Source of the DNA: Terriglobia bacterium
Lineage (GTDB): Bacteria; Acidobacteriota; Terriglobia; 20CM-2-55-15
Length of the DNA: 64,000 nucleotides
Direction: 5' to 3'
NCBI GenBank assembly: GCA_965263045.1
Contig: CBDHGK010000041.1
Coordinates: 4,346,408 to 4,410,407 of the forward strand
In this document: piece by piece, positions 3,192 to 60,510 of the stretch
Layout: each line of letters starts with the position of its first letter
Position numbering within the stretch: position 1 is the first letter of the stretch
The notes under the pieces: generated by a model
The model's input: only the letters and a program-made list of their open reading frames with translations
The model's database searches: none
What the model was told of the DNA's origin: nothing
Position numbers and translations under genes: made by a program

Positions 3192-4937
3192 CCTAGCCCG
3201 CATAAATCACCAGATGGACCAGAAAAGGCCGCCCTGTTTGGCATAAAGCGTTTGTCGAAGACGTTTTAGCAACCAAACAAAGGCGGCCCTTATGACGACA
3301 GAGTGTAACCAAACGACGTTCGAATTTCACGGACTTAATCAACGAAAAGTGAAGGCTCGATTCGACGGAGGGAAGATCACATCCGACGCGGGTGTCCTGC
3401 TGTTGAGGGAAGTCGAAAAACGAACCGGACTGGTCGGGGGACTTGCCGAATGTTTCGCCGATCATCGGGACCCGCGATTGATCGAGCACACGGTGAAGGA
3501 ATTGATTGGGCAACGGGTGTATGGCCTGTGTCTGGGATATGAAGACCTGAACGATCACGACCAACTACGCACCGATCCGATGCTCGCCGTGGCCATCGAT
3601 AAGGCCGATCCGCTGGGAGGCAACCGGCGGCAAGCCAGCGACCGGGGAAAGGCGCTGGCGGGCAAGTGCACGCTGAATCGGCTGGAGTTGACCGGTGCCG
3701 AAGTGGGGGCGGAGGAACGATACAAGAAAATTGCGATGGATGCCGACCAGATTGACCGCTGGATGGTCGATGCATTCATCGCAGCCTATGAATCGGCGCC
3801 TGAAGAAATCATTCTGGACCTCGATGCCACCGACGATCCGATCCACGGGCAACAGGAGGGACGATTCTTTCATGGCTATTACGGCAACTACTGTTATTTG
3901 CCGTTGTATATCTTCTCGGGTGAGCATCTGCTGTGCGCCCGATTGCGACGCTCCAACATCGATGGCGCGGCCGGATCGGTTGAGGAGCTGACCCGCATCA
4001 TCGGACAGATCCGGAAGAGCTGGCCGGATGTGTCGATCATCGTCCGTGGCGACTCGGGTTTTTGCAGAGATGATTTATTGACCTGGTGTGAATCCCATCA
4101 GGTGGATTACGTGGTGGGATTGGCCAAGAACGAGCGACTCCAGGAGGTCATCGCTGAATCCATGGCTCAGGCGAAATCGGAGTTTGAATCCACCGGTAAA
4201 TCGGCACGGATATTTAAGGACTTCCGCTATCGCACACGAGACAGTTGGAGCCAGCAACGGCGCGTCGTGGGCAAGGCCGAGGTTCTGGCCAAGGGCGCCA
4301 ATCCCCGATTCATCGTCACCTCCCTCACACCGCAACGTTGGGAGGCCCGTGCGCTATATGAAGATCTCTACTGTGCGCGCGGCGACATGGAGAACCGGAT
4401 CAAAGAGCAACAACTGGATCTGTTTGCCGACCGCACCAGCGCGGCCACCATGCGCGCCAATCAACTCCGACTGTATCTGTCTTCGGCCGCCTACATGATC
4501 ATGCAGGCCCTGCGTCGACTCGGGCTCCAGGGCACCGAACTGGCGCGCGCTCAATGCGGCACGATCCGGCTGAAGCTGCTCAAGATCGGTGCCCGAATCC
4601 GGTTCACGGTCCGAAACGTCTGGGTGTCGATGGCTGAAGCCTGTCCTTACGCCGAGGTCTATGCCGCCGTTGTCCGCAACCTACAAACAATGCCACTGCG
4701 ATGCTGACACCGACGCTGCGGCTTCGTCCCTGAAATCGATTCGCTTACCCAGTCCGAGCCGAGGTGTGTCTGATCGCGATCGTCAACGCTCTATTGAGCA
4801 CGAAAATCCGCTTCTCACATCGCCAAAAACTCGTCAATTCACCCTGAGACGCTCCCCCCACACCATCTCGCGCCCACCCAGGGTTCTTTTACGCAAAATC
4901 GCAATCACGCGTCGATTGGTGATCTATGCGGGCTAGG
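3192..4937 (+). mobile_element. IS1380-family element (IRL CCTAGCCCGCATAAATCACC / IRR GGTGATCTATGCGGGCTAGG); its last base is displaced to 6484 by a nested IS5-like insertion
   Basis: 20-bp terminal inverted repeats with one mismatch, starting CCTAG as in ISEcp1-type ends. They bracket a 471-aa DDE transposase. Confidence 0.8.
3292..4707 (+). CDS. IS1380-family DDE transposase
   Basis: Carries ITSDAGVLLLREVEK and LDLDATDDPIHGQQEGRFFHGYYGNYCYLPL motifs, which match the IS1380 (ISEcp1-like) signature. Confidence 0.8.
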   Translation: MTTECNQTTFEFHGLNQRKVKARFDGGKITSDAGVLLLREVEKRTGLVGGLAECFADHRDPRLIEHTVKELIGQRVYGLCLGYEDLNDHDQLRTDPMLAVAIDKADPLGGNRRQASDRGKALAGKCTLNRLELTGAEVGAEERYKKIAMDADQIDRWMVDAFIAAYESAPEEIILDLDATDDPIHGQQEGRFFHGYYGNYCYLPLYIFSGEHLLCARLRRSNIDGAAGSVEELTRIIGQIRKSWPDVSIIVRGDSGFCRDDLLTWCESHQVDYVVGLAKNERLQEVIAESMAQAKSEFESTGKSARIFKDFRYRTRDSWSQQRRVVGKAEVLAKGANPRFIVTSLTPQRWEARALYEDLYCARGDMENRIKEQQLDLFADRTSAATMRANQLRLYLSSAAYMIMQALRRLGLQGTELARAQCGTIRLKLLKIGARIRFTVRNVWVSMAEACPYAEVYAAVVRNLQTMPLRC

Positions 4938-6479
4938 AGTCTGCGCGGCAGAGGCTGAATAACTCGGATTTGTGACGATTCGAGAGCGTCTTTGTAGGAG
5001 AGCCGCCCGATTTTCCCAACATGGGCAGCTCCGAGCTGTGGGGACTCGATCCGTTGGTCCTGTGGAGAGCGTTATGGGTCCCGGTGATGCGGATTAAGCC
5101 CATTCGATCTTCCCGTTCATCCGTCGTAAGTTCACTGCCAGAGCCACCAGGCTCCATTCACAGGTGACGTTGTCCAAGCCTCGCAAACTGAACTGTCGGA
5201 ATCCCAGCACCGACTTGATCCACCCGAACGGCGGCTCACCGATGTGCTTTCTGGCCCGGTAGCGATCACGCCCCGTCTGGCTTTTCATCTTTCGGACCAT
5301 GCGGCCCAGGGCCGTGCTTTCGGGTTGGAGTGGGGCCGTGGCGAGATCTTTCTCACGACCCATCGGAACGTACCCATCTATTTGACGTTGTTCCAGCATT
5401 CGCAGATTCGACTCGGATCGGTATCCAGCATCCGCGAGCACCCGGTCTGGACGCTCCGACAGATTCGTGTTCAACTCATCCAGAGTCGGTCCCAACTGCC
5501 CGGTATCTGAAGCATTGTTGCTCACCGTTGTGGCGACGATGATTCGGGCCTCCGCGTCCACGACCGCCTGCGCGTTGTAGCATTGTTGGAACCCGTCGGC
5601 CGAGGTCTTCATGATCCGGCTTTCCGGGTCGGTGAAATTGTCTTGGGCCTTCCCCTTGGGTTCACCCCTCGGGCGTTTGAATGGTTTGCCCTTCTTTCCG
5701 CTTCCCGGTTTGTCGTCTCCAGGCTTCCTTTCCGCTTCCTGGTCTGCCGCCATCTGACGTTCTTCGAGTCGCTTCATCGCCGTCTGGATTGTGGCCAGCC
5801 GCTTCGTGCGGGTCGCCAACCCGTCGGGCAGTTCGTCACCGCGCCGGTCCTTGCCGTAACGTTGGTCTTCTTCCTCATCGGTCGCCGTGGCCCGGTTCAA
5901 CAGATCCCGAATCTGTTCGCCCAATTCGGTCTCCTGCTTTCTCATGCGTTCATAGCTCATCGCTTTGCGTTTGCTCGCATTGGCTCGCATCTTCGTCCCG
6001 TCCACCGCCACCGTTCCCATCTTCACCAGCCCGGCTTCCCGCCCCATCCTCACCACTTGCACAAATAAGTTCCCGAACTCTTCAAGATGCAGTTTTCGAA
6101 AATCCGAGATCGTTCGGTGCGCGGGAAAGTTCTCCGCTCCCAACATCCGGAACGCCACATCTTCGGTCATCTTCGCTGCAATCTTCCGTGACGAAAACAC
6201 TCCCGTCGCGTACCCGTAGATCATCACCTTCACCATCATCCGCGGATCGAAGGCCTGATTGCCCGGCCCGTCCGTTCCATACCTCTGTTCGAACGCGCTC
6301 AAATCCATCGCATCCACGGCGTCCGATATGAAGTACGACAGGTGATCTTCAGCCAGCCAATCTCTCAATGATGGAGGCATCAGCAGGCTCTGTTCTGGAA
6401 TATACGTTCGGTAAGTTCGTGGCATGTCCTATCTTCGATCCTTTTCTGCCCATTTCTGGTCCTTCTGCCGCGCAGACTC
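4937..6479 (-). mobile_element. IS5/IS1182-like element, copy 1 (15-bp IRs GAGTCTGCGCGGCAG; 4-bp CTAG target duplication at 4933-4936 and 6480-6483)
   Basis: Perfect terminal IRs flanked by CTAG on both sides. Identical to copy 2 at 58964..60506 in inverted orientation. Inserted into the CTAG of the IS1380 IRR. Confidence 0.85.
5094..6425 (-). CDS. IS1182/IS5-family DDE transposase
   Basis: 443 aa. The N-terminal motifs PRMMVKVMIYGYATGVFSSRKIAAKMTEDVAFRMLGAENFPAHRTISDFRK and the DAGY-type DDE region match IS1182-family transposases. Identical to 59018..60349. Confidence 0.8.
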   Translation of the reverse strand: MPRTYRTYIPEQSLLMPPSLRDWLAEDHLSYFISDAVDAMDLSAFEQRYGTDGPGNQAFDPRMMVKVMIYGYATGVFSSRKIAAKMTEDVAFRMLGAENFPAHRTISDFRKLHLEEFGNLFVQVVRMGREAGLVKMGTVAVDGTKMRANASKRKAMSYERMRKQETELGEQIRDLLNRATATDEEEDQRYGKDRRGDELPDGLATRTKRLATIQTAMKRLEERQMAADQEAERKPGDDKPGSGKKGKPFKRPRGEPKGKAQDNFTDPESRIMKTSADGFQQCYNAQAVVDAEARIIVATTVSNNASDTGQLGPTLDELNTNLSERPDRVLADAGYRSESNLRMLEQRQIDGYVPMGREKDLATAPLQPESTALGRMVRKMKSQTGRDRYRARKHIGEPPFGWIKSVLGFRQFSLRGLDNVTCEWSLVALAVNLRRMNGKIEWA

Positions 6480-6522
6480 CTAGGTTCATATTGCCAGAAA
6501 GCTCCAATTACGAAATGTCTCT

Positions 6523-6900: not shown

Positions 6901-6945
6901 CTATATGTAGAATTAGATTCGATGAACTGAAGGGTGAACGAAACT

Positions 6946-8565
6946 ATGGCCAGAAAAGAACGCGTTTGTGTTATCGGAGCGGGCCTGTCGGGCCTCATTG
7001 CACTGAAGGAGTTGCTTGAGAAAGGACATGACGTCACTTGCTATGAAAGGGAACTTCGCGAGGGGGGAGTCTTTAACTTTCCAGCGGGTGTGGCTTACGA
7101 CACAATGCGTCTTACCGTCTCGCAGCACTTCATGTGCTTCACTCCGATGCCCGCGCCCCCGCAGGAAAAGCGAGAGCTCTGGACGCGGACACGGTACGCC
7201 CAGTATTTGCAGTCCTTCGCAGAAAAATTTGACCTTTATAGATACATTCAATTTAGTACCGAGGTAGAGGGAATCGAACTCTGTCAGGAAGGCCAGGTCC
7301 GGGTTACTTGTCGTCATAACGCCGAGAGTCGCGACCGGAAGTTTGACGCAGTCGCGATCTGTCAGGGTGCGTTTCGCGCAGACGGTCCGCGAACGCCAAA
7401 CGTCGATGGTCTGGATGACTTTCCTGGAACAGTGGTTCACAGCGGAACTTACAACGACCCGGTGTCCTTTAAGAGTATGCGCGTATTGTGCGTGGGAATG
7501 GGCGAAACGGCCGCAGATATTACCCTGCAGATTTCTGAAGTAGCGGCGAGCTGCACACTAAGTATGCGGTCCTTTCCCGAAATAATAAAAAGATACCGGG
7601 GTCCTGGCCAACGCACCACCGACGTCGACTCTACGCGACTCTTTCACTGGATGTCGCTGGAACAGCGCAGCGATTTCTACGCCTTCAAACGGAAGTTCAG
7701 GGATACGAGGAAGCTTAGCGATCACGATCGGTTGGTTTACGAATGGAATCGAAAATCAGGGGGACGTCGGTCCCTCCAAAAAAACGACGATTTTGTAGAC
7801 AACGTCATCAATGGACGAATTCAGGTGCTTGCTCCGTCCGAGCTCAGATCTATTGAAGGCGATATGGTGATCTTTGATGACCACTCAAGATTGGAAGTGG
7901 ACGCGATCGTATTCTGCACAGGATACGAAGAGAGCTCCATTCCCAACAAGTGGATCAAGGATGTTGAGATCTCTGATGTGCGTCAGTTGTACAAGCATGC
8001 ATTCGATACAGACCTGGGAAGGCAGGTTGCTTTTTTTGGTTGGGCACGACCTCGGCAGGGAGGGTTCCCGGTACTCTCTGAATTGTTAGCCAGGTATTTC
8101 GCACTACTGTGCAGCGGAGAGCGCGAGCTGCCTGCGACAAGCGAAATGAAACGTGTCATTGCTGAAGATTGTGCGCGCGAGGAGGAGTGGTTCGCCAATT
8201 CGAAATCGACGCGTACTCTAGTTCACTACACACGCTATTCAGATGATCTTGCCGAACTGGTTGGATGCCTTCCCAACCTGGAAGAATATCTGAATGATCC
8301 AGAGCTGCTCACACACCTGATTTGTTCGTCAAACATTGGACTGAGCTATCGGTTACAGGGCCCAGACGCCTTCCCGAAGATAGCTAGGGACTCTTGCGTG
8401 TCGGCGCCCATCGCTGATCCGTATGCAGCTATCGATCAGTTCTTGGACTTCTCGCTCAGACAGAGACTGAATCTGGACCTGGCAAAGCGGGTCGCTGAGA
8501 TCATTCGCACATATCTGACCACACACACGACGGACATGCCTTCGACGGAAACCTGGGGAAGCTGA
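6946..8565 (+). CDS. Flavin-containing monooxygenase (class B flavoprotein monooxygenase)
   Basis: VCVIGAGLSGL FAD-binding GxGxxG motif, GTVVHSGTYND FMO motif, and a second dinucleotide fold at VLCVGMGETAADI. GC appears visibly lower than the flanking DNA. Confidence 0.8.
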   Translation: MARKERVCVIGAGLSGLIALKELLEKGHDVTCYERELREGGVFNFPAGVAYDTMRLTVSQHFMCFTPMPAPPQEKRELWTRTRYAQYLQSFAEKFDLYRYIQFSTEVEGIELCQEGQVRVTCRHNAESRDRKFDAVAICQGAFRADGPRTPNVDGLDDFPGTVVHSGTYNDPVSFKSMRVLCVGMGETAADITLQISEVAASCTLSMRSFPEIIKRYRGPGQRTTDVDSTRLFHWMSLEQRSDFYAFKRKFRDTRKLSDHDRLVYEWNRKSGGRRSLQKNDDFVDNVINGRIQVLAPSELRSIEGDMVIFDDHSRLEVDAIVFCTGYEESSIPNKWIKDVEISDVRQLYKHAFDTDLGRQVAFFGWARPRQGGFPVLSELLARYFALLCSGERELPATSEMKRVIAEDCAREEEWFANSKSTRTLVHYTRYSDDLAELVGCLPNLEEYLNDPELLTHLICSSNIGLSYRLQGPDAFPKIARDSCVSAPIADPYAAIDQFLDFSLRQRLNLDLAKRVAEIIRTYLTTHTTDMPSTETWGS

Positions 8566-9140
8566 GACTGGCCGGCCGCATGCCTGCCCGTACCGGATAT
8601 GAGCCTTGCCGCTGCCTATCAGCCGCGCCATCCGGATGAGCGCCGTAGCACCGTTTCCATCTGGGCCCGCACTTCTCACAGGTTGTCTGCTCCAGCGCCG
8701 GATCCATCCGCCAGTGCTCGGTTGCGCTGGGCCAGGCTCCTCGACGTACTGTAGGGTACGCCTCCGTCGCCTGCCCGGCGCGCGCCTTGCCCTGACGGCG
8801 CCTCCGACGCTTCGCGACGAAATCCCGTGAGAAATGCGATTGCGCGACACCGGATAGTCTGACGCGACACAGCTTTCAACACGGGGTGGTGTCGACCCAC
8901 TCTGGTCTCGTGATGGGGAAAGGCTGTCTTACCGGGAAGGCAACCGCTTTCGTGAAGGGTTTGAGTACAGCTGATGTCGCTTGTTTCAGGTCGGGCCGGG
9001 CGAGCAATCGTTTTGGTGGATTCCTTTTCTTTCGAGGTTCTGACATTTGCCGACGGCCTCCTGAACTGTCGCCGGTAACAATGTATCCAGGGTCTCCCCT
9101 TCGGCGTGATTGACGACGCAGACAATCTGGTGTGGCGCTG

Positions 9141-29852: not shown

Positions 29853-30014
29853 GGATCAGTAACGATAACTCGCCCAGAGTTTACCGATCCGGCAGCAACG
29901 GGTGAGCCTACACTTCGGCGTTTGAACGAAGCCGCTGGCGCGGCGGACGCTGCGCGTGGGCTGACCGAGGGGTGATCGTCAGACTGTAGAGTGTGGGCCT
30001 CAAAGGAGGCCCAC

Positions 30015-36685: not shown

Positions 36686-37307
36686 GCACTCGAAAAAGTA
36701 CTGAAGGAACGCGGGTCCCGTGAAGCAGGCCGGACACGGAGCTCGCATGCAACAGGACGACGTGCGGCACGTCCGGCGTGAGGGCGGCACGCACCTCTTC
36801 TGCGTGATCGTAAAGCGCCACGGGTAGTGCCCCGGTGAGGAGGTTCCGCCGTCGGCAATCCCCGACCCCAAAGCCGACCACCGGCATGGAGATCGCGATC
36901 CGGATTTCGTCGATCAGGATCGCGCGCAGGTCGACATCGGGTTCGATCACAGCGGCCCGGTCCGGGGGCTGAACCGAAAGCCAGTGGCCGATGCGGGCCT
37001 CGATTTCGTCGAGCGGATTGCCGCGGTCCCGCGCCACCAGGAGAAGCGTTGAGATGAGGTGGTCGAGTTCCAACTTGGGACAGGAGATGACGTCGGGATC
37101 CCGATTCCGGACATGGAACCCGGAGCCCTGGCGCCGTTCGACCCAGCCCGCGTCGGCCAGCCCGCGGTAGGCTGCCCGCACGGTGTTCGGGTGTATCCCG
37201 AAACGCCGCCCGATCTCAAACGTAGTGGGCAGTCGTTCGCCGGGAGGAAGATCCGCACTCACGATCCCAAGCACGATCGGTGTCTTCAGTTGCTCTTGAA
37301 GTGACAC
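36612..37307 (-). CDS. GntR-family transcriptional regulator (GTG start)
   Basis: N-terminal winged HTH (LPTTFEIGRRFGIHPNTVRAAYRGLADAGWVERRQGSGFHV) with a ~150-aa C-terminal effector domain. Divergent from the FG-GAP gene. Its first 41 nt lie inside the duplicated segment. Confidence 0.7.
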   Translation of the reverse strand: MSLQEQLKTPIVLGIVSADLPPGERLPTTFEIGRRFGIHPNTVRAAYRGLADAGWVERRQGSGFHVRNRDPDVISCPKLELDHLISTLLLVARDRGNPLDEIEARIGHWLSVQPPDRAAVIEPDVDLRAILIDEIRIAISMPVVGFGVGDCRRRNLLTGALPVALYDHAEEVRAALTPDVPHVVLLHASSVSGLLHGTRVPSVLFRVLILEIPNCISVVVTNGENLGACRE

Positions 37308-37486
37308 CTCACTCGTCTTCGAAGCCAGATCCTCTTAAGTGATCGCTCTCAGCGTCGGCCTGTTCCACCCGACTGTCATTTTCCAGGCGTTCCGGCAGAA
37401 TCTCGACCCGTTTGTGACAGTTGAAAAACTGCGACAGTCGGGCTTCTGGCCCCGACCGCCAAACCCTAGAGTGCAGGGGTGAGGTG
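37308..37486. promoter_or_regulatory. Divergent GntR / FG-GAP intergenic region with candidate operator palindromes
   Basis: GTCGGGcttctggcCCCGAC (6-bp inverted repeat, 8-nt spacer) and CAGTTgaaaAACTG, plus direct repeats TGTGACAG / TGCGACAG. The same sequence is present in copy 1 at 42..220. Confidence 0.3.
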
Positions 37487-39190: not shown

Positions 39191-39218
39191 GCAAAATCAT
39201 AGCGGAGGAACAACGCAC

Positions 39219-39845
39219 ATGATCAAGGCACTCGCTGCAATACTGTTCTCGGTCCTGCTCTGCCTCGGGTCCGTTGTCGACGGCAGCGCTCAGCGGTCCA
39301 CGACTCAAGGCTGGGTATTCGGTCTGGAACTCGGAGGAACGGCCATCTCCTTCCAGAACGAGCCGAGTGACAGAGGAGGACTCGTGGGCGCTCGGGCCGG
39401 CTATGGCCTCAACGGGATCGTCACACCGTACCTGGGCATATACGAAGCCGACGTCGACGTCCGGGGGTTTGATGCCTTCGACAAAGTGACATTTGGCCAC
39501 ATCGACCTCGGGGTGAGGCTGCACTTGGCCAATAGCCGCCGCCGGTGGGTCCCTTATGGCGACCTTGCTGTTACATTCTGGCCTGTGAGCGACGTTAAGA
39601 AGCACCAGGAACGGACCACCACCGACTTCGGGGGAAGGGCGACCTCCAGCCTGGGAGGCGGACTCGCCATCTACCTGTCTGAGGCGTGGGCCCTCGATGT
39701 GAACTTCAAGAGAGGCACGGGAGGGTTCAGAGACATCGAGCTTGACAACATCTCGTGTGGCGGGACGAGCGAACATTTGCACACATTCCTCGACATCTGG
39801 GCCGAATCGGCTCGGTTCACCATCGGGCTTTCGTGGTGGCCGTAG
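39219..39845 (+). CDS. 8-strand outer-membrane beta-barrel protein (copy 2; 3 aa substitutions versus copy 1)
   Basis: RRF/RGF, FKDIEVDNISRGG / FRDIELDNISCGG differences, plus synonymous and 3'-UTR SNPs. Confidence 0.65.
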   Translation: MIKALAAILFSVLLCLGSVVDGSAQRSTTQGWVFGLELGGTAISFQNEPSDRGGLVGARAGYGLNGIVTPYLGIYEADVDVRGFDAFDKVTFGHIDLGVRLHLANSRRRWVPYGDLAVTFWPVSDVKKHQERTTTDFGGRATSSLGGGLAIYLSEAWALDVNFKRGTGGFRDIELDNISCGGTSEHLHTFLDIWAESARFTIGLSWWP

Positions 39846-40332
39846 CCCGAGAGCGGAAGTGGGTTGCGCCGCGAGATGCGAGGGCACCGTTTGGGGGACG
39901 GATAGGAGATTCAAAACGCCCAGGCGGCCTGCGGAGCAAGGTCGGGTGAGCCTTTCTGCGGTAGCAGGGATGATTCTGGTCGGCGTCATCGCTAGAATCG
40001 CCTTGTTCTGGTAGTTCCCGTACTTGAGGCACTTGCCTGCACGATCATTCGTCCCGGGCTGAACAAATCACCCTGAGAAACAATACCGTCAAATCGTGCG
40101 AAATGACCTGAAAGCAAAGCCCATATGAATCCCCGTGTACTGGTCAGTTACTCCCTCGTATTGGCGCTGGTGATCGCGTCCCGGACCGCATGTGCGCAGC
40201 CCAGCGCGGGAACTCCGAACGTCAACGAGGCAGGTTCCGATAGTCGGGCGACGACACCATAAAGGAGCTTTTCTTCCTGATTCGGAGGCCGGTAGTCGTC
40301 GATAGCCACAAAGGAACTCTGGAAGCTCCGCT

Positions 40333-42223: not shown

Positions 42224-43786
42224 GTGATGATCGTGGCGCCGACGCTTGCAGTCCTACCGAATCTCAACGCTCTCGATGCCGATGCCTTGAAGGCACTGGT
42301 CATTGAGCAGCACTCCGAACTGATCTCGAACAAGTCCGAAATCGACAATCTGAAGTTGCTCATCCTGAAGTTGAAGCGGATGCAGTTTGGACGCCGCTCC
42401 GAGAAACTGGACCGCCAGATCGAACAACTGGAACTGCGACTGGAAGATCTGGAAACGGTACCGGATGCCAAACCAGTAATGGCGGCGGATGCGCCATCGG
42501 TGGTTTCAAACCGGCCGACAAGGGGCCCGCTGCCGGCAGAACTGCCACGGGAAACCCAGACACTGCAGCCCGATGAAGACGCCTGTCCTGATTGTGGCGG
42601 CACGCTGGGCACGCTGGGCGCAGATGTATCGGAAACTCTGGAATACGTCCCGATGCGCTTCAAGGTGATCCGCACGGTGCGGCCCAAACTGAGCTGCAGG
42701 CGGTGTGACCGCATTGTGCAGCAGCCGGCCCCCCATCGGCCGATCCCTCGGGGCCTGGCCGGACCCGGTCTGCTGGCTCACGTCATGGTGGCCAAGTATG
42801 CGGACCATCTTCCACTCTATCGGCAGTCGGAGATCTACGCTCGCGTCGGGGTGGAACTGGAGCGATCGACGTTGGCCGGATGGGTCGGAGGCACGAGTCG
42901 GACTCTGGAACCTCTGGTCGATGCCATCCAGCAATACGTGCTCGAAGCCGACAAGCTGCACGGCGATGACACTCCGGTTCCGGTCCTGGCACCGGGCAAC
43001 GGCAAGACGAAGACAGGGCGTCTGTGGACGTATGTTCGGGACGACCGGCCCGCCGGCAGTGGGGAAGCACCGGCCGTTTGGTTCGCCTACTCACCCGACC
43101 GCAAGGGCGCGCATCCGGGGAAACACCTCCAACGCTTCAATGGAACGCTGCAGGCCGATGGATTCGCTGGATTCAACAGGGTGTACGAAACCGGTACCGT
43201 TCGAGAAGCCGCTTGCTGGGCGCATGTTCGGCGGAAGTTCTATGACCTGTATGAAGCGCACCGATCACCGGTCGCGGAAGAAGCGCTTCAGCGCATCGCG
43301 GCGCTTTACGGAATCGAGCAAGAGATTCGCGGCCGACCTCCCGACGAGCGGCAACAGATCCGCCAGGCGCGAGCGCGACCATTACTGGAATCCTTTGAGG
43401 CGTGGCTTCAAAGATCCCTAACGAAGCTATCCAAAAAATCGGACACATCCAAGGCGGTGCACTACGCGCTCGGCCGATGGCCTGCATAACTGCGCTATTG
43501 CGGTGATGGTCAGATCGAGATCGACAACAATGCGGCCGAACGCGCGCTTCGAGCGGTGGCGATTGGACGCAAGAACTACCTGTTCGCGGGCTCGGACTCC
43601 GGCGGAGAGCGCACTGCAGCTATGTACAGCCTGATCGGCTCGGCCAAACTCAACGGCATCGATCCTGAAGCCTATCTATCTTACGTCCTGGCCCGGATCG
43701 CGGATCACCCGATCCGTCGCATCGAGGAACTGTTGCCCTGGAACGTCGCTCCTATCCTCGCCGAACAGTCCGTCACGACTGACTGA
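42224..43786 (+). pseudogene. IS66 TnpC transposase with in-frame TAA at 43487..43489
   Basis: Zn-finger CPDCGG...CRRCDR, then ...HYALGRWPA*LRYCGDGQIEIDNNAAERALRAVAIGRKNYLFAGSD continues in the same frame after the stop. Confidence 0.8.
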
Positions 43787-49422: not shown

Positions 49423-50578
49423 CTAGTGGTCCCCGTCAAACAGACTGTAACTTATCGAGCTTCTTTCGGGCACGTTGAACTTTTTCAAGAATATCGGAAG
49501 CCGTTGCGGTCCAAATGAAGGGCTTCGGGTTCTGATTGTGACCCCCGACATATTCCTCCACGGCCTGGATTAGCTCAGGAACCGAATGGAAAACCCCGCG
49601 CCGAAGCCGTTGTTCGGAAAGATCCCGGAAGAAGCGTTCGACCATGTTCAGCCAGGATGCACTGGTCGGTGTGAAGTGCACATGAAAGCGCGTGTTGCGC
49701 TTCAACCAGTTGACGACTTTCTGATGTTTGTGCGTGGCGTAGTTGTCGCAAATGATATGGATCTGTTTGTCTTTCGGCACGGAACGTTTGATCTGATTGA
49801 GAAACCGGATCCATTCCTGATGACGATGCTTCGGCATACAGGTCCCGATAATCGAGCCGTCCAGCGTATTGAGCGCGGCGAACATCGTGGTCGTCCCGTT
49901 GCGTTTGTAGTCGTGGGTGAGGGTGCCGCACCGCCCCTTCTTCAGAGGTACCCGGGTTGCGTGCGGTCCAGGGCCTGCATCTGGCTCTTCTCATCGCAGG
50001 ACAAAACAATGGCGTTTTCCGGAGGGTTCAGATACAAACCGACCACATCCTCCAACTTCTCGACAAATTGTTTGTCGTTGGAAAGTTTGAAGGTGCGTGC
50101 CAGATGAGGCTTCAAGCCATGAGCCCGCCAGATTCTCCCTACCGTGGACTCGCTGACGCCGGTTGCCCTGGCCATCAAGGACCGGCTCCAGTGCGTGGCG
50201 TTCGGAGGCTTCCCTTCGACCGTCTTCTTCACGATCCGGGCCCGCTTCCGGCGGCCGATCGAGGGAATCCGTCCACTGCGGGAAGCGTCCTTTTCGATTC
50301 CCCCGAGGCCATCTTCAACGAAACGATCGCGCCAACGTCCGGCCTTTTGACGAGTGATGTCCAACTTGGCAGCGATCTCCTGATTGTCCAGACCCCCGGC
50401 GGCCAGCAAGACAATTCGAGATCGTTCCGCCAACCGGACCGCCACACTGCGGCTTCGGCTCAGTCGCTCCAGTTCCTTCCGCACAGGAATGTCCAATTTA
50501 ATCGTCGGTGCTCTCCTCATATATACTCAGACGTAGGAAAGCTGAATAAGTTACATTAACTGTGACGGACTACACTAG
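49423..50578 (-). mobile_element. IS630-family element, copy A (transposase frameshifted)
   Basis: Ends CTAGTGGTCCCCGTCAAACAGACTGTAACTTAT... and ...CTGTGACGGACTACACTAG. 1156 bp versus 1157 bp for intact copy B. Confidence 0.8.
49436..50520 (-). pseudogene. IS630-family transposase with frameshift (two ORF pieces 49436..49885 and 49942..50520)
   Basis: Near-identical to the intact 361-aa ORF 57865..58950 but split between frames around 49885-49942. Confidence 0.8.
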
Positions 50579-50755
50579 CAGCTGGCCGTGAACGCCGTAA
50601 GTATCCGTATCCTTGAAAGCGGCGCTATCGGTAAACTGGGTTGGCAATAGATCCCCGTTTCCAGAGTTGATTTCAACCTCTTGAGCGAAAAGTGAATTGG
50701 GCTGGGCCAACAGCAAAACGAACAACCCTACACCTGCGAGAACGCCTCTTCTCAT
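50579..50755 (-). pseudogene. N-terminal part (signal peptide) of the secreted-protein gene split by IS630 copy A
   Basis: MRRGVLAGVGLFVLLLAQPNSLFAQEVEINSGNGDLLPTQF...VHGQL, then runs into the IS terminus. Confidence 0.5.
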
Positions 50756-52605: not shown

Positions 52606-52953
52606 ATGCCGTCGATCCCCATGACCACGAAGGAAGGTGTGTATCTGTGCTCTAACTGCGGACTGGAAGCCATAGTAGAAGCACACGAATATGAATTCAA
52701 GGAGAGCGGATTTAACGTCATCCTGCTCGGTCTTAGGGTCGCGTACTGTCCGGAGTGTGGGAATCAGGATCCGATCATCCCGCAAATGGACGATCTTATG
52801 AAAACACTCGGGCTGGATGTGGCGGCTAAGCCGACCCGGCTCAACGGCCCAGAGATACAGGTTCCTTCTAAAGGAGTTGACAAAATGATCGCACAGCAAA
52901 TGTTCTTGCTCGTCCTGGTATATGTGATGGCTAGTGTAGTCCGTCACAATTAA
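52606..52953 (+). CDS. YgiT/MqsA-type zinc-ribbon protein; 3' end now provided by the IS630-derived MITE
   Basis: YLCSNCG...YCPECG paired CxxC. The C-terminal hydrophobic tail ...VMASVVRHN* is encoded by the MITE terminus. Confidence 0.5.
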   Translation: MPSIPMTTKEGVYLCSNCGLEAIVEAHEYEFKESGFNVILLGLRVAYCPECGNQDPIIPQMDDLMKTLGLDVAAKPTRLNGPEIQVPSKGVDKMIAQQMFLLVLVYVMASVVRHN

Positions 52954-53125
52954 CGTAACGGCTCTAGCTGTCCCATTTCTGATCATATATGCGGAAAATA
53001 ATGCCCATTAGATCGGAAATCCCTGTGCGGAAGGAACTCGAACGGCTTGGCCGAAGCCGCAGTGTGTCGGTCTGGCTCGGGGAACGATCTGAATAAGGTA
53101 CAGTCTGTTAGACGGGGACCACTAG
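52931..53125 (+). mobile_element. IS630-derived MITE (internally deleted, 195 bp)
   Basis: The left ~110 bp (CTAGTGTAGTCCGTCACAATTAACGTAAC...CCTGTGCGGAAGGAACTCGAACGGCTTGGCCGAAGCCGCAGTGTG...) and right end (CAGTCTGTTAGACGGGGACCACTAG) match both ends of IS630 copy B, with the transposase gene deleted. Confidence 0.8.
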
Positions 53126-53187
53126 TTGCGTCTCGTTGACAAAGCACAACCCAAAATCGAACATCTGGGCTTGAGAGGTAGGCCACG

Positions 53188-54596
53188 GAAGATTATTGGA
53201 GTTATAACCGAATCTGGTGTTTGAGGGATTGAAGAAAAGCGGCGTATCTGGTTGATTTGTTGTTTACGAGACTTCAAAGCAACCAAAGGAGATACGCCAC
53301 TATGAGTAAGAGTATCGTTATTGAACGGGAAGATCGAGAAGCGATCGCAGACGCGGTGACCGATTTGCTACGAGCCGGAGCTCAAGAGCTGATCCAACGC
53401 GCAGTCGAAGCCGAATTGTCAGAACTGCTATCCCAGCACAACGATCGGCGCACCGAGAAGGGGAACGCCGGGGTGGTGCGCAATGGCTATCTGCCTGAAC
53501 GCGAACTGCAGACCGGTTTGGGACCGGTAACGGTGCAAATCCCGAAGGTCCGTGCCAAGACCGGCGAAGCGGTGACGTTCCGATCGGCGCTGGTACCTCC
53601 GTACATTCGAAAGACGAAGTCGCTGGAAGCCGCGGTGCCGTGGTTGTATTTGAAAGGCGTCTCGAGCGGCGAAATGGGTGAAGCCCTAAAAGTTCTTGTC
53701 GGTCCCCAGGCGCAAGGTCTGTCGGCGAGCACGGTATCGCGCCTGAAGCAGGTCTGGGGCGAGGAGTACCGCCAAAGCTGCGAGGAGCGGCTGGATGCAA
53801 ACCGCTGGGTGTATGTCTGGGCCGACGGCATTTACAGCGGACTTCGTGCGGAACAAACCAAGTTGTGTGCATTGGTCGTGATCGGCGTGAATGAACGCGG
53901 AGAGAAGCGTTTTCTGGCGATCGAAGACGGTGTCCGGGAATCGACACAGAGTTGGCGCGAGGTCTTGTTGAAGCTGAAGTCCCGTGGGATGAATATCCCG
54001 GAGTTGGCCATCGGTGACGGTGCGATGGGGTTCTGGGCCGCACTGGAGGAAATCTATCCCGGGACACGCCAACAACGCTGCTGGATGCACAAGACCATGA
54101 ACGTGTTGAACTGCCTACCCAAGTCGGCTCAGGCGAAAGCGAAAGAGGCCTTGCACGCGATCTGGAAGGCCGAGACAAAGGCAGACGCCGAGAAGGCATT
54201 CGACCTGTTCATTGAAACCTATGAACCGAAATATCCGAAAGCCACTCTCTGCCTCCAGAAAGACAGCGAAGCACTGCTGGCCTTTTACGACTTCCCGGCC
54301 AAGCACTGGCAGAGCCTCAGAACGACCAATCCCATTGAGTCGACCTTCGCGACCATCCGCCACCGGACCAAGCGATCCAGGGGGTGCCTGACGCGCGACG
54401 GCATGCTGCACATGATGTTCAAACTGGGACAGTGCGCTCAGAAGAACTGGCGACGATTACGAGGATTCGATGATCTGGCCAAGGTGATTACTGGAGTGAA
54501 ATTCAACGATGGTATCGAGGTGACAAACGTCGATCAGGCCGCCGCTTGATTCAGTCGCCTAAACACCACTTTTGACAATAACTCAGATTATTGCTC
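53188..54596 (+). mobile_element. IS256-family element #2 (approximate ends)
   Basis: Imperfect IRs GATTATTGGAGTTATAACCGAATCTGGTGTTTGAGG versus the reverse complement of CCTAAACACCACTTTTGACAATAACTCAGATTATTGCTCC. Confidence 0.6.
53302..54549 (+). CDS. IS256-family (mutator-type) transposase
   Basis: CWMHKTMNV motif and DDE region. Different sequence from 15207..16499. Confidence 0.8.
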   Translation: MSKSIVIEREDREAIADAVTDLLRAGAQELIQRAVEAELSELLSQHNDRRTEKGNAGVVRNGYLPERELQTGLGPVTVQIPKVRAKTGEAVTFRSALVPPYIRKTKSLEAAVPWLYLKGVSSGEMGEALKVLVGPQAQGLSASTVSRLKQVWGEEYRQSCEERLDANRWVYVWADGIYSGLRAEQTKLCALVVIGVNERGEKRFLAIEDGVRESTQSWREVLLKLKSRGMNIPELAIGDGAMGFWAALEEIYPGTRQQRCWMHKTMNVLNCLPKSAQAKAKEALHAIWKAETKADAEKAFDLFIETYEPKYPKATLCLQKDSEALLAFYDFPAKHWQSLRTTNPIESTFATIRHRTKRSRGCLTRDGMLHMMFKLGQCAQKNWRRLRGFDDLAKVITGVKFNDGIEVTNVDQAAA

Positions 54597-55497: not shown

Positions 55498-55959
55498 TGA
55501 GTTCTCCTCTTGAGGAATGCGCCCTATTGCGCCCTCGTTTAGTAAGTGCGGCTGAGGCGTGAATTATTACGCTCGTGTTGTTGAGCTTGTTCTTGGATGT
55601 AGCCCTGTGAGAACAACCTTTACAGATTTCACAGCCAAGGCAGGCCGAAAAATCGGATGCGTCAGCATCCAACGTAATCTTGCCGCAATCGAATGGCATC
55701 TTCGCTTTCTGCAGGAAAAATGCGTGAAATTTGAATGTCGCCCGGATACACTCTGTTGTCATCAAGACTGCCCCGGTTTCGCTGGCTGAAACGCTCTTCG
55801 CAAGATGTTTTACGCCGATCAGGGCAGCCTTTCCTTGTCCTTTTGGTGATCTGTACGGATTCGGCCTATCGTGTCTGCGGCAGGCCCCGACGCTAGGTGG
55901 AATATGGGAACGAGCCGGGGACGGATACGCGGCGACGGTGGCCTCGAGGACTGGGCTCG

Positions 55960-56355
55960 ATGAAACACGCCAGCTTCCTTGTTCTTGCCGCACTCCTGGT
56001 ATTAATCGCGACTGATCGGATTCGAAATACCGAAACGGTCCTCGTGGAGGTGACCGCTGAAGCCTCCGCACCCGCGGTTCCTCCTCTAGTAGAATTTGCC
56101 CCACCCCGCTTCGAACATTCAGCTTATGACTATGTCCGGACTCGCCTGGAGCGGGATCTAATGGCAATCGAGGCGTTCCGGCCGTCTTATCCATTCTGGC
56201 AGCATGTCTTCACGATCCCAGACGGCAATGTCGCATTCGGAAGCGCAACGGACGGAAGGTTGCTGGTGTCGTTTCCCACCCGGGGTAACTGGGTTCGGGA
56301 CGGCCGTTGGGAAGAACCTGCGCTAGCAGCCCGTGGCAGAAGTGGGGTTTTCTGA
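55960..56355 (+). CDS. Secreted/membrane-anchored hypothetical protein
   Basis: MKHASFLVLAALLVLIATD N-terminal hydrophobic segment. Confidence 0.35.
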   Translation: MKHASFLVLAALLVLIATDRIRNTETVLVEVTAEASAPAVPPLVEFAPPRFEHSAYDYVRTRLERDLMAIEAFRPSYPFWQHVFTIPDGNVAFGSATDGRLLVSFPTRGNWVRDGRWEEPALAARGRSGVF

Positions 56356-57738
56356 GTTGAGAGTTTCAGGTCTTCGCCCGGACGGAACGGCGTCTAAATC
56401 GATTCTGGAGCGCTGAGGATGGAACGAGAGCGATTCACAGTGGCTCCAGAGCAGTATTAAGGTGAATAAGGCCATGACATGTTGGCCCTGAAGGCCTCGT
56501 GGTGTGCCGTTTCCGAAATTGTTCCGAAGGATCAGGCTCAGATTCAAAGCGGCATATTGAATCAGGACGCGCTTGAGAATGTTGTCCCGATGTCGGAGGT
56601 GAACCCGACGCATTGCGCCGGTTTCCAGCGTGTGTGCGAACGGTCGTTCCAACATCAGTCCGCGCTGTCGGAGTAATTGCTTGCCCCGGTTGCCTCGGAT
56701 TCGTCGCCGGTTGGCATAGACGGCCTGTTTTTCTTCGGACTTATCTTTCCAGTTGCGTCGGCCCCGGTCCGGTTCCGAGATGTAGCTGCGAATGTTGAGG
56801 TCTTTGAATCCGGTCAACGTATCGTTACTGTGATAGCCCTTATCCGCCACCAGTTCGGAGAGCACATCGTTCCGAAGTTTCGATCCAGGATCGGCGGCCA
56901 AGGTCTCCATCTGATGCGCGGCTTGGATCATCGTTTCTTTGATCGTCGTCGTGTCGCCCTGATCGGCACCCTGCACCGTGACCGCCAGGATGGCTCCGGT
57001 CTTCATGTCGGCGGCATGCTCCACCTTATGGGCCAGATGCGTTCGTCCGTCCTTCATCTTCGTGATTCGCGCATCCGGGTCGTGGGGATGCTCCCACTCT
57101 TTGTTCGATCCTTTCTTCGACCGCTTGCGGTCGAGTCGCCCCAGCTCGGTTTGCGTCGGTGTCTCGATCCCAGACGCCTTGGCCAGCCGTGTCAGGAATT
57201 GGTTGTAGGCTTCTCCGGTGTCCCGGCGTACGATCGACCGCATCGCCGCGTTGGCTTCCAGTGTCGATGCATCCACGCCCACCGTCTTCCCATCGATCAG
57301 GCCCTCACCGGCCAACACGCCCAACATCCACGAAAAGACCTTTCCATGTGTTTCCAGATCGATCAACCGTCGCGTCCGCGAGACTGTCGAATGATCCGGC
57401 ACCCCTTCGCTCAGCCCGACTCCAAGGAATCCTCGCAAACTCAGAGAATCGGCACACCGCCACGCTATGCCACGCTCCGAATCGATTCCTTCGAAATAGC
57501 CCACCAGCAACATCCTAAAATACTTGCCCGGCGCCACGCTCGGCCGACCCATCACCTCAGCGTAGAACTGCTCACAGGCATCTTCGACGAACCGGTCGAA
57601 CTTGGCTTGGTCCAAGATTCGGTTAACCCGTTCGTAGAACACGTGGCCCGCTGTCCGCGGCAACTCTGCTGTCGCAACCCATAACGTGGCTTGTCGGTCC
57701 TTTTTCCGTCCCATTCCCATATCGCGTTCTCCTTCCAC
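56323..57738 (-). CDS. IS5-family DDE transposase (471 aa)
   Basis: N-terminal YFRMLLVGYFEGIDSERGIAWRCADSLSLRGFLG, DDE region with ADKGY. Confidence 0.7.
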   Translation of the reverse strand: MEGERDMGMGRKKDRQATLWVATAELPRTAGHVFYERVNRILDQAKFDRFVEDACEQFYAEVMGRPSVAPGKYFRMLLVGYFEGIDSERGIAWRCADSLSLRGFLGVGLSEGVPDHSTVSRTRRLIDLETHGKVFSWMLGVLAGEGLIDGKTVGVDASTLEANAAMRSIVRRDTGEAYNQFLTRLAKASGIETPTQTELGRLDRKRSKKGSNKEWEHPHDPDARITKMKDGRTHLAHKVEHAADMKTGAILAVTVQGADQGDTTTIKETMIQAAHQMETLAADPGSKLRNDVLSELVADKGYHSNDTLTGFKDLNIRSYISEPDRGRRNWKDKSEEKQAVYANRRRIRGNRGKQLLRQRGLMLERPFAHTLETGAMRRVHLRHRDNILKRVLIQYAALNLSLILRNNFGNGTPRGLQGQHVMALFTLILLWSHCESLSFHPQRSRIDLDAVPSGRRPETLNSENPTSATGC

Positions 57739-57806
57739 TATCTTCCTCGCGATACGGTCGCATGGGGTCCGTTGTTAACTATGAAGTTGACTTGCACCAC
57801 GGGCTG

Positions 57807-58963
57807 CTAGTGTAGTCCGTCACAGTTAATGTAACTTATTCAGCTTTCCTACGTCTGAGTATATATGAGGAGAGCACCGACGATTAAATTGGACATTCCT
57901 GTGCGGAAGGAACTGGAGCGACTGAGCCGAAGCCGCAGTGTGGCGGTCCGGTTGGCGGAACGATCTCGAATTGTCTTGCTGGCCGCCGGGGGTCTGGACA
58001 ATCAGGAGATCGCTGCCAAGTTGGACATCACTCGTCAAAAGGCCGGACGTTGGCGCGATCGTTTCGTTGAAGATGGCCTCGGGGGAATCGAAAAGGACGC
58101 TTCCCGCAGTGGACGGATTCCCTCGATCGGCCGCCGGAAGCGGGCCCGGATCGTGAAGAAGACGGTCGAAGGGAAGCCTCCGAACGCCACGCACTGGAGC
58201 CGGTCCTTGATGGCCAGGGCAACCGGCGTCAGCGAGTCCACGGTAGGGAGAATCTGGCGGGCTCATGGCTTGAAGCCTCATCTGGCACGCACCTTCAAAC
58301 TTTCCAACGACAAACAATTTGTCGAGAAGTTGGAGGATGTGGTCGGTTTGTATCTGAACCCTCCGGAAAACGCCATTGTTTTGTCCTGCGATGAGAAGAG
58401 CCAGATGCAGGCCCTGGACCGCACGCAACCCGGGTTACCTCTGAAGAAGGGGCGGTGCGGCACCCTCACCCACGACTACAAACGCAACGGGACGACCACG
58501 ATGTTCGCCGCGCTCAATACGCTGGACGGCTCGATTATCGGGACCTGTATGCCGAAGCATCGTCATCAGGAATGGATCCGGTTTCTCAATCAGATCAAAC
58601 GTTCCGTGCCGAAAGACAAACAGATCCATATCATTTGCGACAACTACGTCACGCACAAACATCAGAAAGTCGTCAACTGGTTGAAGCGCAACACGCGCTT
58701 TCATGTGCACTTCACACCGACCAGTGCATCCTGGCTGAACATGGTCGAACGCTTCTTCCGGGATCTTTCCGAACAACGGCTTCGGCGCGGGGTTTTCCAT
58801 TCTGTTCCTGAGCTAATCCAGGCCGTGGAGGAATATGTCGGGGGTCACAATCAGAACCCGAAGCCCTTCATTTGGACCGCAACGGCTTCCGATATTCTTG
58901 AAAAAGTTCAACGTGCCCGAAAGAAGCTCGATAAGTTACAGTCTGTTTGACGGGGACCACTAG
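57807..58963 (+). mobile_element. IS630-family element, copy B (intact)
   Basis: Imperfect ~33-bp IRs CTAGTGTAGTCCGTCACAGTTAATGTAACTTAT / ATAAGTTACAGTCTGTTTGACGGGGACCACTAG. Confidence 0.8.
57865..58950 (+). CDS. IS630-family (Tc1/mariner-like) transposase
   Basis: 361 aa with HTH N-terminus and DDE region containing HFTPTSASWLNMVERFF. Confidence 0.85.
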   Translation: MRRAPTIKLDIPVRKELERLSRSRSVAVRLAERSRIVLLAAGGLDNQEIAAKLDITRQKAGRWRDRFVEDGLGGIEKDASRSGRIPSIGRRKRARIVKKTVEGKPPNATHWSRSLMARATGVSESTVGRIWRAHGLKPHLARTFKLSNDKQFVEKLEDVVGLYLNPPENAIVLSCDEKSQMQALDRTQPGLPLKKGRCGTLTHDYKRNGTTTMFAALNTLDGSIIGTCMPKHRHQEWIRFLNQIKRSVPKDKQIHIICDNYVTHKHQKVVNWLKRNTRFHVHFTPTSASWLNMVERFFRDLSEQRLRRGVFHSVPELIQAVEEYVGGHNQNPKPFIWTATASDILEKVQRARKKLDKLQSV

Positions 58964-60506
58964 GAGTCTGCGCGGCAGAAGGACCAGAAATGGGCAGAAA
59001 AGGATCGAAGATAGGACATGCCACGAACTTACCGAACGTATATTCCAGAACAGAGCCTGCTGATGCCTCCATCATTGAGAGATTGGCTGGCTGAAGATCA
59101 CCTGTCGTACTTCATATCGGACGCCGTGGATGCGATGGATTTGAGCGCGTTCGAACAGAGGTATGGAACGGACGGGCCGGGCAATCAGGCCTTCGATCCG
59201 CGGATGATGGTGAAGGTGATGATCTACGGGTACGCGACGGGAGTGTTTTCGTCACGGAAGATTGCAGCGAAGATGACCGAAGATGTGGCGTTCCGGATGT
59301 TGGGAGCGGAGAACTTTCCCGCGCACCGAACGATCTCGGATTTTCGAAAACTGCATCTTGAAGAGTTCGGGAACTTATTTGTGCAAGTGGTGAGGATGGG
59401 GCGGGAAGCCGGGCTGGTGAAGATGGGAACGGTGGCGGTGGACGGGACGAAGATGCGAGCCAATGCGAGCAAACGCAAAGCGATGAGCTATGAACGCATG
59501 AGAAAGCAGGAGACCGAATTGGGCGAACAGATTCGGGATCTGTTGAACCGGGCCACGGCGACCGATGAGGAAGAAGACCAACGTTACGGCAAGGACCGGC
59601 GCGGTGACGAACTGCCCGACGGGTTGGCGACCCGCACGAAGCGGCTGGCCACAATCCAGACGGCGATGAAGCGACTCGAAGAACGTCAGATGGCGGCAGA
59701 CCAGGAAGCGGAAAGGAAGCCTGGAGACGACAAACCGGGAAGCGGAAAGAAGGGCAAACCATTCAAACGCCCGAGGGGTGAACCCAAGGGGAAGGCCCAA
59801 GACAATTTCACCGACCCGGAAAGCCGGATCATGAAGACCTCGGCCGACGGGTTCCAACAATGCTACAACGCGCAGGCGGTCGTGGACGCGGAGGCCCGAA
59901 TCATCGTCGCCACAACGGTGAGCAACAATGCTTCAGATACCGGGCAGTTGGGACCGACTCTGGATGAGTTGAACACGAATCTGTCGGAGCGTCCAGACCG
60001 GGTGCTCGCGGATGCTGGATACCGATCCGAGTCGAATCTGCGAATGCTGGAACAACGTCAAATAGATGGGTACGTTCCGATGGGTCGTGAGAAAGATCTC
60101 GCCACGGCCCCACTCCAACCCGAAAGCACGGCCCTGGGCCGCATGGTCCGAAAGATGAAAAGCCAGACGGGGCGTGATCGCTACCGGGCCAGAAAGCACA
60201 TCGGTGAGCCGCCGTTCGGGTGGATCAAGTCGGTGCTGGGATTCCGACAGTTCAGTTTGCGAGGCTTGGACAACGTCACCTGTGAATGGAGCCTGGTGGC
60301 TCTGGCAGTGAACTTACGACGGATGAACGGGAAGATCGAATGGGCTTAATCCGCATCACCGGGACCCATAACGCTCTCCACAGGACCAACGGATCGAGTC
60401 CCCACAGCTCGGAGCTGCCCATGTTGGGAAAATCGGGCGGCTCTCCTACAAAGACGCTCTCGAATCGTCACAAATCCGAGTTATTCAGCCTCTGCCGCGC
60501 AGACTC
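58964..60506 (+). mobile_element. IS5/IS1182-like element, copy 2 (CTAG duplications at 58960-58963 and 60507-60510)
   Basis: Identical to 4937..6479 but inverted. Inserted into the CTAG at the end of IS630 copy B. Confidence 0.85.
59018..60349 (+). CDS. IS1182/IS5-family transposase (copy 2)
   Basis: Identical translation to 5094..6425. Confidence 0.8.
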   Translation: MPRTYRTYIPEQSLLMPPSLRDWLAEDHLSYFISDAVDAMDLSAFEQRYGTDGPGNQAFDPRMMVKVMIYGYATGVFSSRKIAAKMTEDVAFRMLGAENFPAHRTISDFRKLHLEEFGNLFVQVVRMGREAGLVKMGTVAVDGTKMRANASKRKAMSYERMRKQETELGEQIRDLLNRATATDEEEDQRYGKDRRGDELPDGLATRTKRLATIQTAMKRLEERQMAADQEAERKPGDDKPGSGKKGKPFKRPRGEPKGKAQDNFTDPESRIMKTSADGFQQCYNAQAVVDAEARIIVATTVSNNASDTGQLGPTLDELNTNLSERPDRVLADAGYRSESNLRMLEQRQIDGYVPMGREKDLATAPLQPESTALGRMVRKMKSQTGRDRYRARKHIGEPPFGWIKSVLGFRQFSLRGLDNVTCEWSLVALAVNLRRMNGKIEWA

Positions 60507-60510
60507 CTAG

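Follow-up and report, generated by a model that had tools for sequence, protein, structure and literature searches.

Elements of the IS1182 family of insertion sequences (ISs) are about 1.3 to 2 kb long and have short terminal inverted repeats, IS5 elements enter a YTAR target and duplicate 4 bp of it, and IS630 elements prefer CTAG and duplicate TA. IS1397 and ISKpn1 insert in repetitive extragenic palindromic sequences and bacterial interspersed mosaic elements (REP/BIME), and IS231 inserts in the ends of Tn4430. Within the IS1182 family, ISPsy36 uses a GGCC target (PMC8027508), some members target palindromic sequences, and IS1272 is described as replacing an inverted repeat without duplication (PMC5678879); for IS630, the target has been given as NTAN (PMC5678879). 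Here we analyze a stretch of 64,000 nucleotides from a Terriglobia bacterium (Acidobacteriota; contig CBDHGK010000041.1 of assembly GCA_965263045.1, positions 4,346,408 to 4,410,407), referred to below as the window, which carries two identical copies of an IS1182-family element, each inserted in a CTAG at the border of another IS.

Our results lead us to regard this element, with high confidence, as an ordinary active IS1182-family IS that is specific for CTAG and that becomes stacked on other ISs through shared target specificity and through the harmlessness of insertions at their borders. The observation that it occurs repeatedly at IS tips is sound, and its explanation is ordinary. A literature search, which did not extend to ISfinder, found nothing specific on a CTAG-targeting IS1182 member or on CTAG-driven IS stacking.

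Two identical copies and the CTAG duplication

Copy 1 (4937-6479, minus strand) and copy 2 (58964-60506, plus strand) are each 1,543 bp long, 100% identical to one another, and lie in inverted orientation about 52 kb apart, just as the preliminary description had them. In a self-BLAST of the window, 4932-6483 is the reverse complement of 58960-60511 with 100% identity over 1,552 bp, a match made up of the element, the CTAG on either side, and one base that agrees by chance. The perfect CTAG flanks claimed for both copies were read directly on all four sides, each copy having the form CTAG-GAGTCTGCGCGGCAGA...TCTGCCGCGCAGACTC-CTAG with a perfect 16-bp terminal inverted repeat, GAGTCTGCGCGGCAGA; the right-hand duplicated target of copy 1 occupies 6480-6483.

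Both copies encode the same transposase of 443 amino acids in a single intact open reading frame (ORF), at 5094-6425 on the minus strand in copy 1 and at 59018-60349 on the plus strand in copy 2. It contains PF05598 (DUF772) at residues 55-124, PF01609 (DDE_Tnp_1) at 273-433, and PF13751 (DDE_Tnp_1_6) at 366-436, and has the combination that marks the IS1182 family, namely, an N-terminal DUF772 domain and a C-terminal DDE_Tnp_1/DDE_Tnp_1_6 domain in one ORF. The length of 1,543 bp and the perfect 16-bp inverted repeat also agree with that family. The protein scores 369.1 bits against the NCBIfam model NF033551, "IS1182 family transposase" (cut-off, 270), and its second-best match is an IS5 model at 55 bits. 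All IS5 models remain below their cut-offs (given in parentheses): NF033581 at 55 (140), NF033578 at 40 (275), NF033580 at 37 (110), and NF033579 at 27 (140). The label "IS5/IS1182-like" can be kept for its IS1182 half, and the transposase fails every IS5 model of NCBIfam; a 4-bp YTAR duplication of the IS5 type, CTAG on both sides, is found at about 98% of the 84 copies described next.

The exact transposase occurs on two further contigs (L001 and L002), where the whole element is again 100% identical and flanked by CTAG; in L002, it abuts the tip of an IS1380-like element that differs from the one in the window. The intact ORF and these four identical copies at different sites lend indirect support to the view that the transposase has its catalytic DDE triad and that the element may be transposition-competent. 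A protein-guided scan of GTDB genomes added 80 relative loci from five or six Terriglobia metagenome-assembled genomes (MAGs), with 88 to 91% amino-acid identity and 84 to 85% DNA identity, and the two window copies, L001, L002, and the 80 relatives make up our sample of 84 insertions. At left ends, CTAG is present in 80 of 81 cases and TTAG in the remaining one; at right ends, CTAG is present in 78 of 81, the three others being one copy that is truncated, one that reaches the end of its contig, and one with a 7-bp duplication, CTGTTAG. Essentially all 84 insertions are flanked by CTAG. The relative with the 7-bp direct repeat (L041, 2947-4483) lies between an IS1380-like tip and a tip that resembles ISx2, a second and different IS1182/IS5-like element described below, and reads as an atypical insertion at a TTAG site.

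In the JGI metagenomes, the exact 40-nt element end had no match, and the 18-nt inverted repeat was found in at least 120 contigs (L084-L203) with very diverse internal sequence. The 128 ends available there are preceded by CTAG in 93 cases, CCAG in 11, TTAG in 3, and CTAA in 2; the CCAG-flanked ends (11/128) suggest a subgroup whose target differs. Many elements from soil, sludge, freshwater, and marine metagenomes have the inverted repeat GAGTCTGCGCGGCAGARG in common and are otherwise different.

Neighboring elements, empty sites, and a restored gene

The neighbors are those named in the preliminary description, an IS1380-family element to the left of copy 1 and IS630-family copy B to the left of copy 2. 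The IS1380-family element (3197-4932, plus strand; 1,736 bp; inverted repeats CCCGCATAAATCACC / GGTGATCTATGCGGG) encodes a transposase of 471 amino acids (3292-4707, plus strand) that scores 404 bits against NF033539 and carries the Pfam domain DDE_Tnp_1_4. Its ends were defined from two 99.94% identical copies. In one of these (L204), the element is bounded by CTAG on both sides with neither tip occupied, and the right junction reads ...GCGGG-CTAG-flank, with a single CTAG; in the other (L205), it is bounded by TTAG on both sides. The matched TTAG pair identifies the tetranucleotide as the target duplication of IS1380. Full IS1380-like elements in related loci are 1,736 to 1,753 bp long, have inverted repeats CCCGCAT.../...ATGCGGG, and lie between two CTAGs; the base outward of the bounding tetranucleotide varies. 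The left target-site duplication of the window's IS1380 element is the CTAG at 3193-3196, as seen by direct reading and by comparison with related loci, and the CTAG at 4933-4936 is, by comparison with L204, both its right target duplication and the insertion site of copy 1. Copy 1 had been described as sitting in a CTAG of the IS1380 right inverted repeat and as having displaced the last IS1380 base to 6484. These sequence comparisons indicate instead that it sits in the duplicated target of IS1380, exactly at the IS1380 border, and that no base was displaced, the element ending at 4932 and the base outward of the duplication being variable. The element boundaries are hereby corrected, in that CTAG belongs to the duplication and lies outside the inverted repeat. 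An IS1380 element lacking a target duplication, which would have hinted at a rearrangement, was also considered and rejected, as the flanking CTAGs are the duplication. The sampled DNA contained no further copy of the IS3-like sequence interrupted by IS1380, from which its empty site could have been read.

Copy 2 is part of a stack of three ISs in a transglycosylase (SLT-domain) gene, with the order gene'-CTAG-ISx2-CTAG-IS630 B-CTAG-IS1182 copy 2-CTAG-'gene. The 5' part of the gene (55960-56326, plus strand) ends in the original CTAG, and its 3' part, together with the duplicated target copy, occupies 60507-61664 on the plus strand; both parts are defined by the restored frame and by homologues. 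ISx2 (56327-57806, minus strand; 1,480 bp; inverted repeats CAGCCCGTGG...; CTAG at 56323 and 57807) encodes a transposase of 471 amino acids (56323-57738, minus strand) with the Pfam domains DUF772 and DDE_Tnp_1, which falls below the cut-off of both the IS1182 and the IS5 models of NCBIfam. A relative of ISx2 in L040 has the form CTAA-IS-CTAA, and the matched CTAA on its two sides marks the tetranucleotide as a target duplication. A transposase 100% identical to that of ISx2 is encoded in the Terriglobia chromosome OZ253536.1 (L003). IS630 copy B, with both junction CTAGs, spans 57807-58963 on the plus strand (element proper 57810-58960, 1,151 bp, with a TA duplication), and its intact transposase of 361 amino acids (57865-58950, plus strand) scores 267 bits against NF033545. 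Copy 2 directly abuts the CTAG at one end of copy B, as had been described, and ISx2 occupies the CTAG at the other tip. IS630 was the first to arrive, since ISx2 and IS1182 copy 2 each occupy a CTAG that it had rebuilt.

When 56327-60510 (4,184 bp) is deleted and one CTAG is kept, a 527-codon open frame runs across the junction. The length agrees with the sum of three simple insertions (IS630, 1,151 + 2 bp for TA; ISx2, 1,480 + 4; IS1182, 1,543 + 4). The restored product comprises 506 amino acids from its first methionine. Its full-length homologues, which number more than 2,000 and are about 500 amino acids long, include some annotated with an SLT transglycosylase domain, and it is 82% identical to one homologue (P0001) in an alignment that is gap-free at the junction; the contig that encodes P0001 has the gene uninterrupted and is colinear with 55871-56322 and 60512-61655 of the window. 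The flanks of copy B that the preliminary description called scrambled, and tentatively attributed to inversion, are three nested simple insertions at one original CTAG: the other flank is merely ISx2, and the deletion restores a conserved gene exactly. A composite transposon made of the 52-kb segment was also rejected, since copy 2 is a simple insertion and removal of 56327-60510 alone restores the gene, and a "cagc" that seems common to both IS630 copies beyond their right ends is a 4-bp coincidence, being in copy B the first four bases of the ISx2 inverted repeat.

The two IS630 copies form an inverted pair (49423-50582 and 57803-58963) that is 99.74% identical. Copy A, with both junction CTAGs, spans 49423-50578 on the minus strand, has G...C ends and a TA duplication, and has unoccupied tips, so that it shows just one CTAG at a position that in copy B reads CTAG-IS-CTAG. 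Relative to copy B, it has two substitutions and lacks 1 bp; this deletion splits its transposase into ORFs of 149 and 192 amino acids, so that copy A is probably inactive. Excision of copy A joins a 165-codon ORF across the site. Each of the identical IS630 copies elsewhere (L206-L208) is bounded by CTAG, which is rebuilt at both junctions by the G...C ends and the adjoining TA.

Inverted repeats of 1.2 to 1.5 kb that are identical or 99.7% identical are in general good recombination substrates, and recombination between the IS1182 copies (52 kb) or the IS630 copies (7 kb) could already have inverted DNA here and given copy B its odd flanks; the same CTAG duplication at every copy means that such an exchange could not show itself as mismatched duplications. 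We nevertheless consider a past inversion very improbable. The stack is flanked by the halves of a single gene, which agree in orientation and reading frame and which an inversion through copy 2 or IS630 copy B would have separated; excision of IS630 copy A likewise joins an ORF, and the supposedly scrambled flank is another IS. Because the two parts of the gene still lie opposite one another on either side of the stack, no net inversion has passed through IS1182 copy 2 or IS630 copy B, and the assembled arrangement is the un-inverted one for both pairs. GC skew in 2-kb windows, flat and noisy and too coarse to inform, has no step at the copy positions. What stands of the earlier proposal is that the inverted pairs are potential inversion substrates: the identical IS1182 copies are plausible substrates for a 52-kb inversion, and none occurred in this assembly; inverted isomers in a minority of the molecules are possible.

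These sites also bear on two doubts, namely, that CTAG might be the terminal sequence of the element itself, with no duplication of the target, and that the arrangement might be an artefact of assembling repeats. CTAG does stand beside virtually every copy, as would be expected of a fixed terminal sequence, and identical repeats are classic sites of misassembly. Yet the empty sites (IS630 copy A, IS1380 in L204, and the restored transglycosylase gene) carry exactly one CTAG, rare copies have TTAG or CTAA in its place, and L041 is flanked by the duplicated CTGTTAG. Moreover, the same kinds of junctions recur in independent assemblies, such as IS630 tip-CTAG-ISx2-CTAG-IS1182-like in L003 and an IS1380 with both tips occupied in L028, and the restored gene supports the joins as real. 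We therefore regard both possibilities as extremely remote.

CTAG supply and insertion at IS tips

CTAG is about fivefold depleted in the window, with 49 occurrences against 239 expected from base composition and 72 expected under a trinucleotide Markov model, and because it is so rare, the four perfect CTAG flanks are not due to chance. Borders of mobile elements account for 15 of the 49 CTAGs in the window and for 227 of 513 distinct CTAGs in all sampled DNA.

To describe where the 84 insertions lie, two criteria were applied to their outward flanks, recurring inverted-repeat motifs and tblastn matches to a panel of transposases verified with Pfam; classification by the largest adjacent ORF was dropped as too noisy, given the many spurious ORFs in high-GC DNA. 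Between 29 and 31 insertions (35 to 38%) abut the tip of another element. The neighbor is IS1380-like in 16 cases, ISx2-type in 4, a 1,601-bp IS1182-like element with inverted repeat CAGCCTGTCGGACTT in 3, a 267-bp miniature inverted-repeat transposable element (MITE; TGRCCTGTAAC) in 4 or 5, IS630-like in 2 or 3, and another copy of the element itself in 1. In about 60% of cases, the surrounding DNA is unique, and a long ORF is interrupted in many of these. Unoccupied CTAGs abut such tips in 63 of 349 cases (18%), which gives an odds ratio of 2.7 for insertions (p = 3.5e-4). In the window alone, all three IS1182-like insertions are on IS-border CTAGs (p ~0.02 under the assumption of equal targets, with 12 of 46 pre-insertion sites at borders). 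The 84 insertions have no orientation bias, which fits a palindromic target, and both IS1380 ends are used. At sites outside IS tips, the positions -1/+1 are G or C in 83% of cases, compared with 55% in the background (p = 0.003), and the target rule read from these sites is S-CTAG-S, with a mild G/C preference. IS1380, ISx2, the 1,601-bp element, and IS1182 all start with C or G, and their borders consequently fit this rule.

Some sampled loci have more elaborate arrangements. One IS1380 has IS1182-like copies in direct orientation at both of its tips (L028, 1055-2801), two IS1182-like copies stand head to head and share one CTAG (L011, 2940-2945), and a 158-bp mini-element consists of two IS1182-type inverted repeats (L007, 2676-2833).

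In the mechanism that we propose, the DDE transposase would make a 4-bp staggered cut at the CTAG palindrome and thereby duplicate the target, a chemistry that we infer from what is generally known of DDE transposases. Duplications of 4 bp, YTAG (or CTAR), are also made by the IS1380-like elements and by two further elements of the IS1182/IS5-like kind, IS630 enters CTAG and duplicates TA, with its G...C ends rebuilding CTAG at both junctions, and the 267-bp MITE is CTAG-bounded likewise. Each insertion adds one CTAG, exactly at an IS border, and a further insertion at that border leaves the resident IS end complete and breaks no host gene, and so would tend to persist, the outcome being end-to-end stacks such as that of ISx2, IS630, and IS1182 between the two gene halves. 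That the co-resident mobile elements are themselves CTAG-bounded would account for the presence of the IS1182 element at their tips, and since CTAG is depleted in host DNA while each insertion contributes one border CTAG, borders hold a large share of the targets.

A different explanation would be that the transposase actively recognizes the ends of other ISs, through their inverted-repeat structure or a bound transposase, with CTAG only part of the target. The 2.7-fold enrichment of tips over unoccupied CTAGs would agree with this, as would the frequent occupation of IS1380-like tips (16 of 32 in the sample, the most of any kind), and IS1272, of the same family, is reported to target inverted-repeat or stem-loop structures, some members of the family targeting palindromes (PMC5678879). 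We think such recognition unlikely, however. The targeted tips comprise at least five unrelated inverted-repeat sequences, which have in common only CTAG and, mostly, the following C; the majority of insertions in unique DNA, many within long ORFs, the use of both IS1380 ends, and the lack of orientation bias also speak against it. Of the 128 ends in the broad metagenome sample, only about 5 abut a recognizable tip, and the excess can be explained by the G/C preference at -1/+1 together with selection against insertions that disrupt genes. The preliminary description had the element repeatedly targeting IS tips; the repetition is borne out in the window, among the two further identical copies (L001 and L002), and in the 80 relatives, but recognition of IS ends is not, as shared CTAG specificity explains the pattern better.

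Several points weigh against an account by shared specificity and harmless borders. The 2.7-fold tip enrichment exceeds simple availability in the sample, the background is biased in that it consists of DNA around known insertions rather than an unbiased sample of genomes, and selection is not separable in this sample from a real mechanistic preference. CTAG is palindromic, so a 4-bp duplication is formally inseparable from a TA duplication with G...C element ends. The exact element is documented at four sites only, the large sample consisting of relatives with 84 to 85% DNA identity, and no transposition was directly observed. A passive account is nonetheless the best supported, in which target supply, flanking-base preference, and purifying selection together suffice for the moderate excess at tips, the relative weight of target supply and selection being likewise inferred.

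We further speculate, as a reading that we hold to be possible though rather doubtful, that a guild of unrelated transposons in Terriglobia (IS1182-, IS1380-, and IS630-like elements and MITEs) has converged on the scarce CTAG, and that borders act as self-propagating safe harbors that are used beyond their numbers. If so, the supply of targets would grow with the IS load and be concentrated in harmless places, and this would shape where in the chromosome IS nests and substrates for large rearrangements accumulate.

Under the ordinary reading that we prefer, the locus is a clean and well-controlled example of how shared target specificity alone yields nested IS stacks, with no IS-seeking mechanism needed. 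This is useful in annotating IS-rich MAGs, where such stacks resemble scrambled or chimeric DNA, and it supplies an S-CTAG-S target rule for a widespread IS1182-type group that shares the inverted repeat GAGTCTGCGCGGCAGA.

Other mobile DNA of the window and comparison with known systems

Several other elements in the window are bounded by CTAG, and their borders are counted among the 15 given above. A second, divergent IS1380-like element (27986-29839; CTAG at 27982 and 29840) encodes a DDE_Tnp_1_4 protein of 526 amino acids and has 84% DNA identity to a copy in a contig of a relative (L083). A 110-bp MITE (36519-36628) has the inverted repeat GAGTCTGTCGGGAAT, of which the first 7 bases match the IS1182 inverted repeat, and a 187-bp MITE (52935-53121) is IS630-derived and has kept both IS630 inverted repeats. 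The window as a whole is IS-dense, with further transposase genes of the IS66 family (42224-43489) and the IS256/Mutator family (53257-54549) and an IS3-type orfA remnant (2886-3185). A tandem duplication of 2.5 kb (29920-32430 and 32426-34936, 99.96% identical) contains in each unit a tyrosine recombinase gene (Phage_integrase) followed by an IS91-type Y2 transposase gene, and the IS91-type transposase ORF of the second unit is the shorter one (372 versus 486 amino acids).

A pair of 105-bp inverted repeats (2732-2835 and 8735-8838, 93% identical), each with the IS1380-like motif CCCGCATTTCTCAC at its outer tip, encloses 6.1 kb with the IS3-type orfA remnant, the IS1380::IS1182 insertion, and a flavin monooxygenase gene (6934-8565), and this pair with its interior may represent either a mobile unit of larger size or the trace left by a rearrangement. 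A 2.7-kb direct repeat (1-2726 and 37267-39992, 99.6% identical) includes a gene for an FG-GAP-repeat protein. Its second copy ends at CTAG (39992) and its first at CCAG followed by the IS1380-like tip CCCGCATTTCTCAC, and these endings indicate that the boundary of the duplication coincides with a mobile-element border.

Among known systems, the element is most like the IS1182 family, including ISPsy36 and IS1272, in having one DDE transposase with DUF772 and DDE_Tnp_1/DDE_Tnp_1_6 domains, a length of about 1.5 kb, 16-bp inverted repeats, and a short palindromic target. It differs from IS1272 in that CTAG is targeted here with a clean 4-bp duplication. With IS5 it has in common a CTAG or CTAA target, a 4-bp duplication, and a related DDE_Tnp_1 fold, although its transposase has the N-terminal DUF772 domain and is longer than those of the IS5 type. 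The likeness to IS630/Tc1-mariner lies in the tetranucleotide, as IS630 shares the targets and rebuilds CTAG at its own ends, whereas the IS630 transposase belongs to an unrelated family (DDE_3) and its duplication is 2 bp and not 4 bp. As with IS1397/ISKpn1 and IS231, insertions concentrate in repeated, selectively neutral DNA and give rise to nested elements. In those systems, however, a repeat sequence or structure is recognized, whereas the tips occupied here share only CTAG, which the resident elements themselves have created or duplicated.

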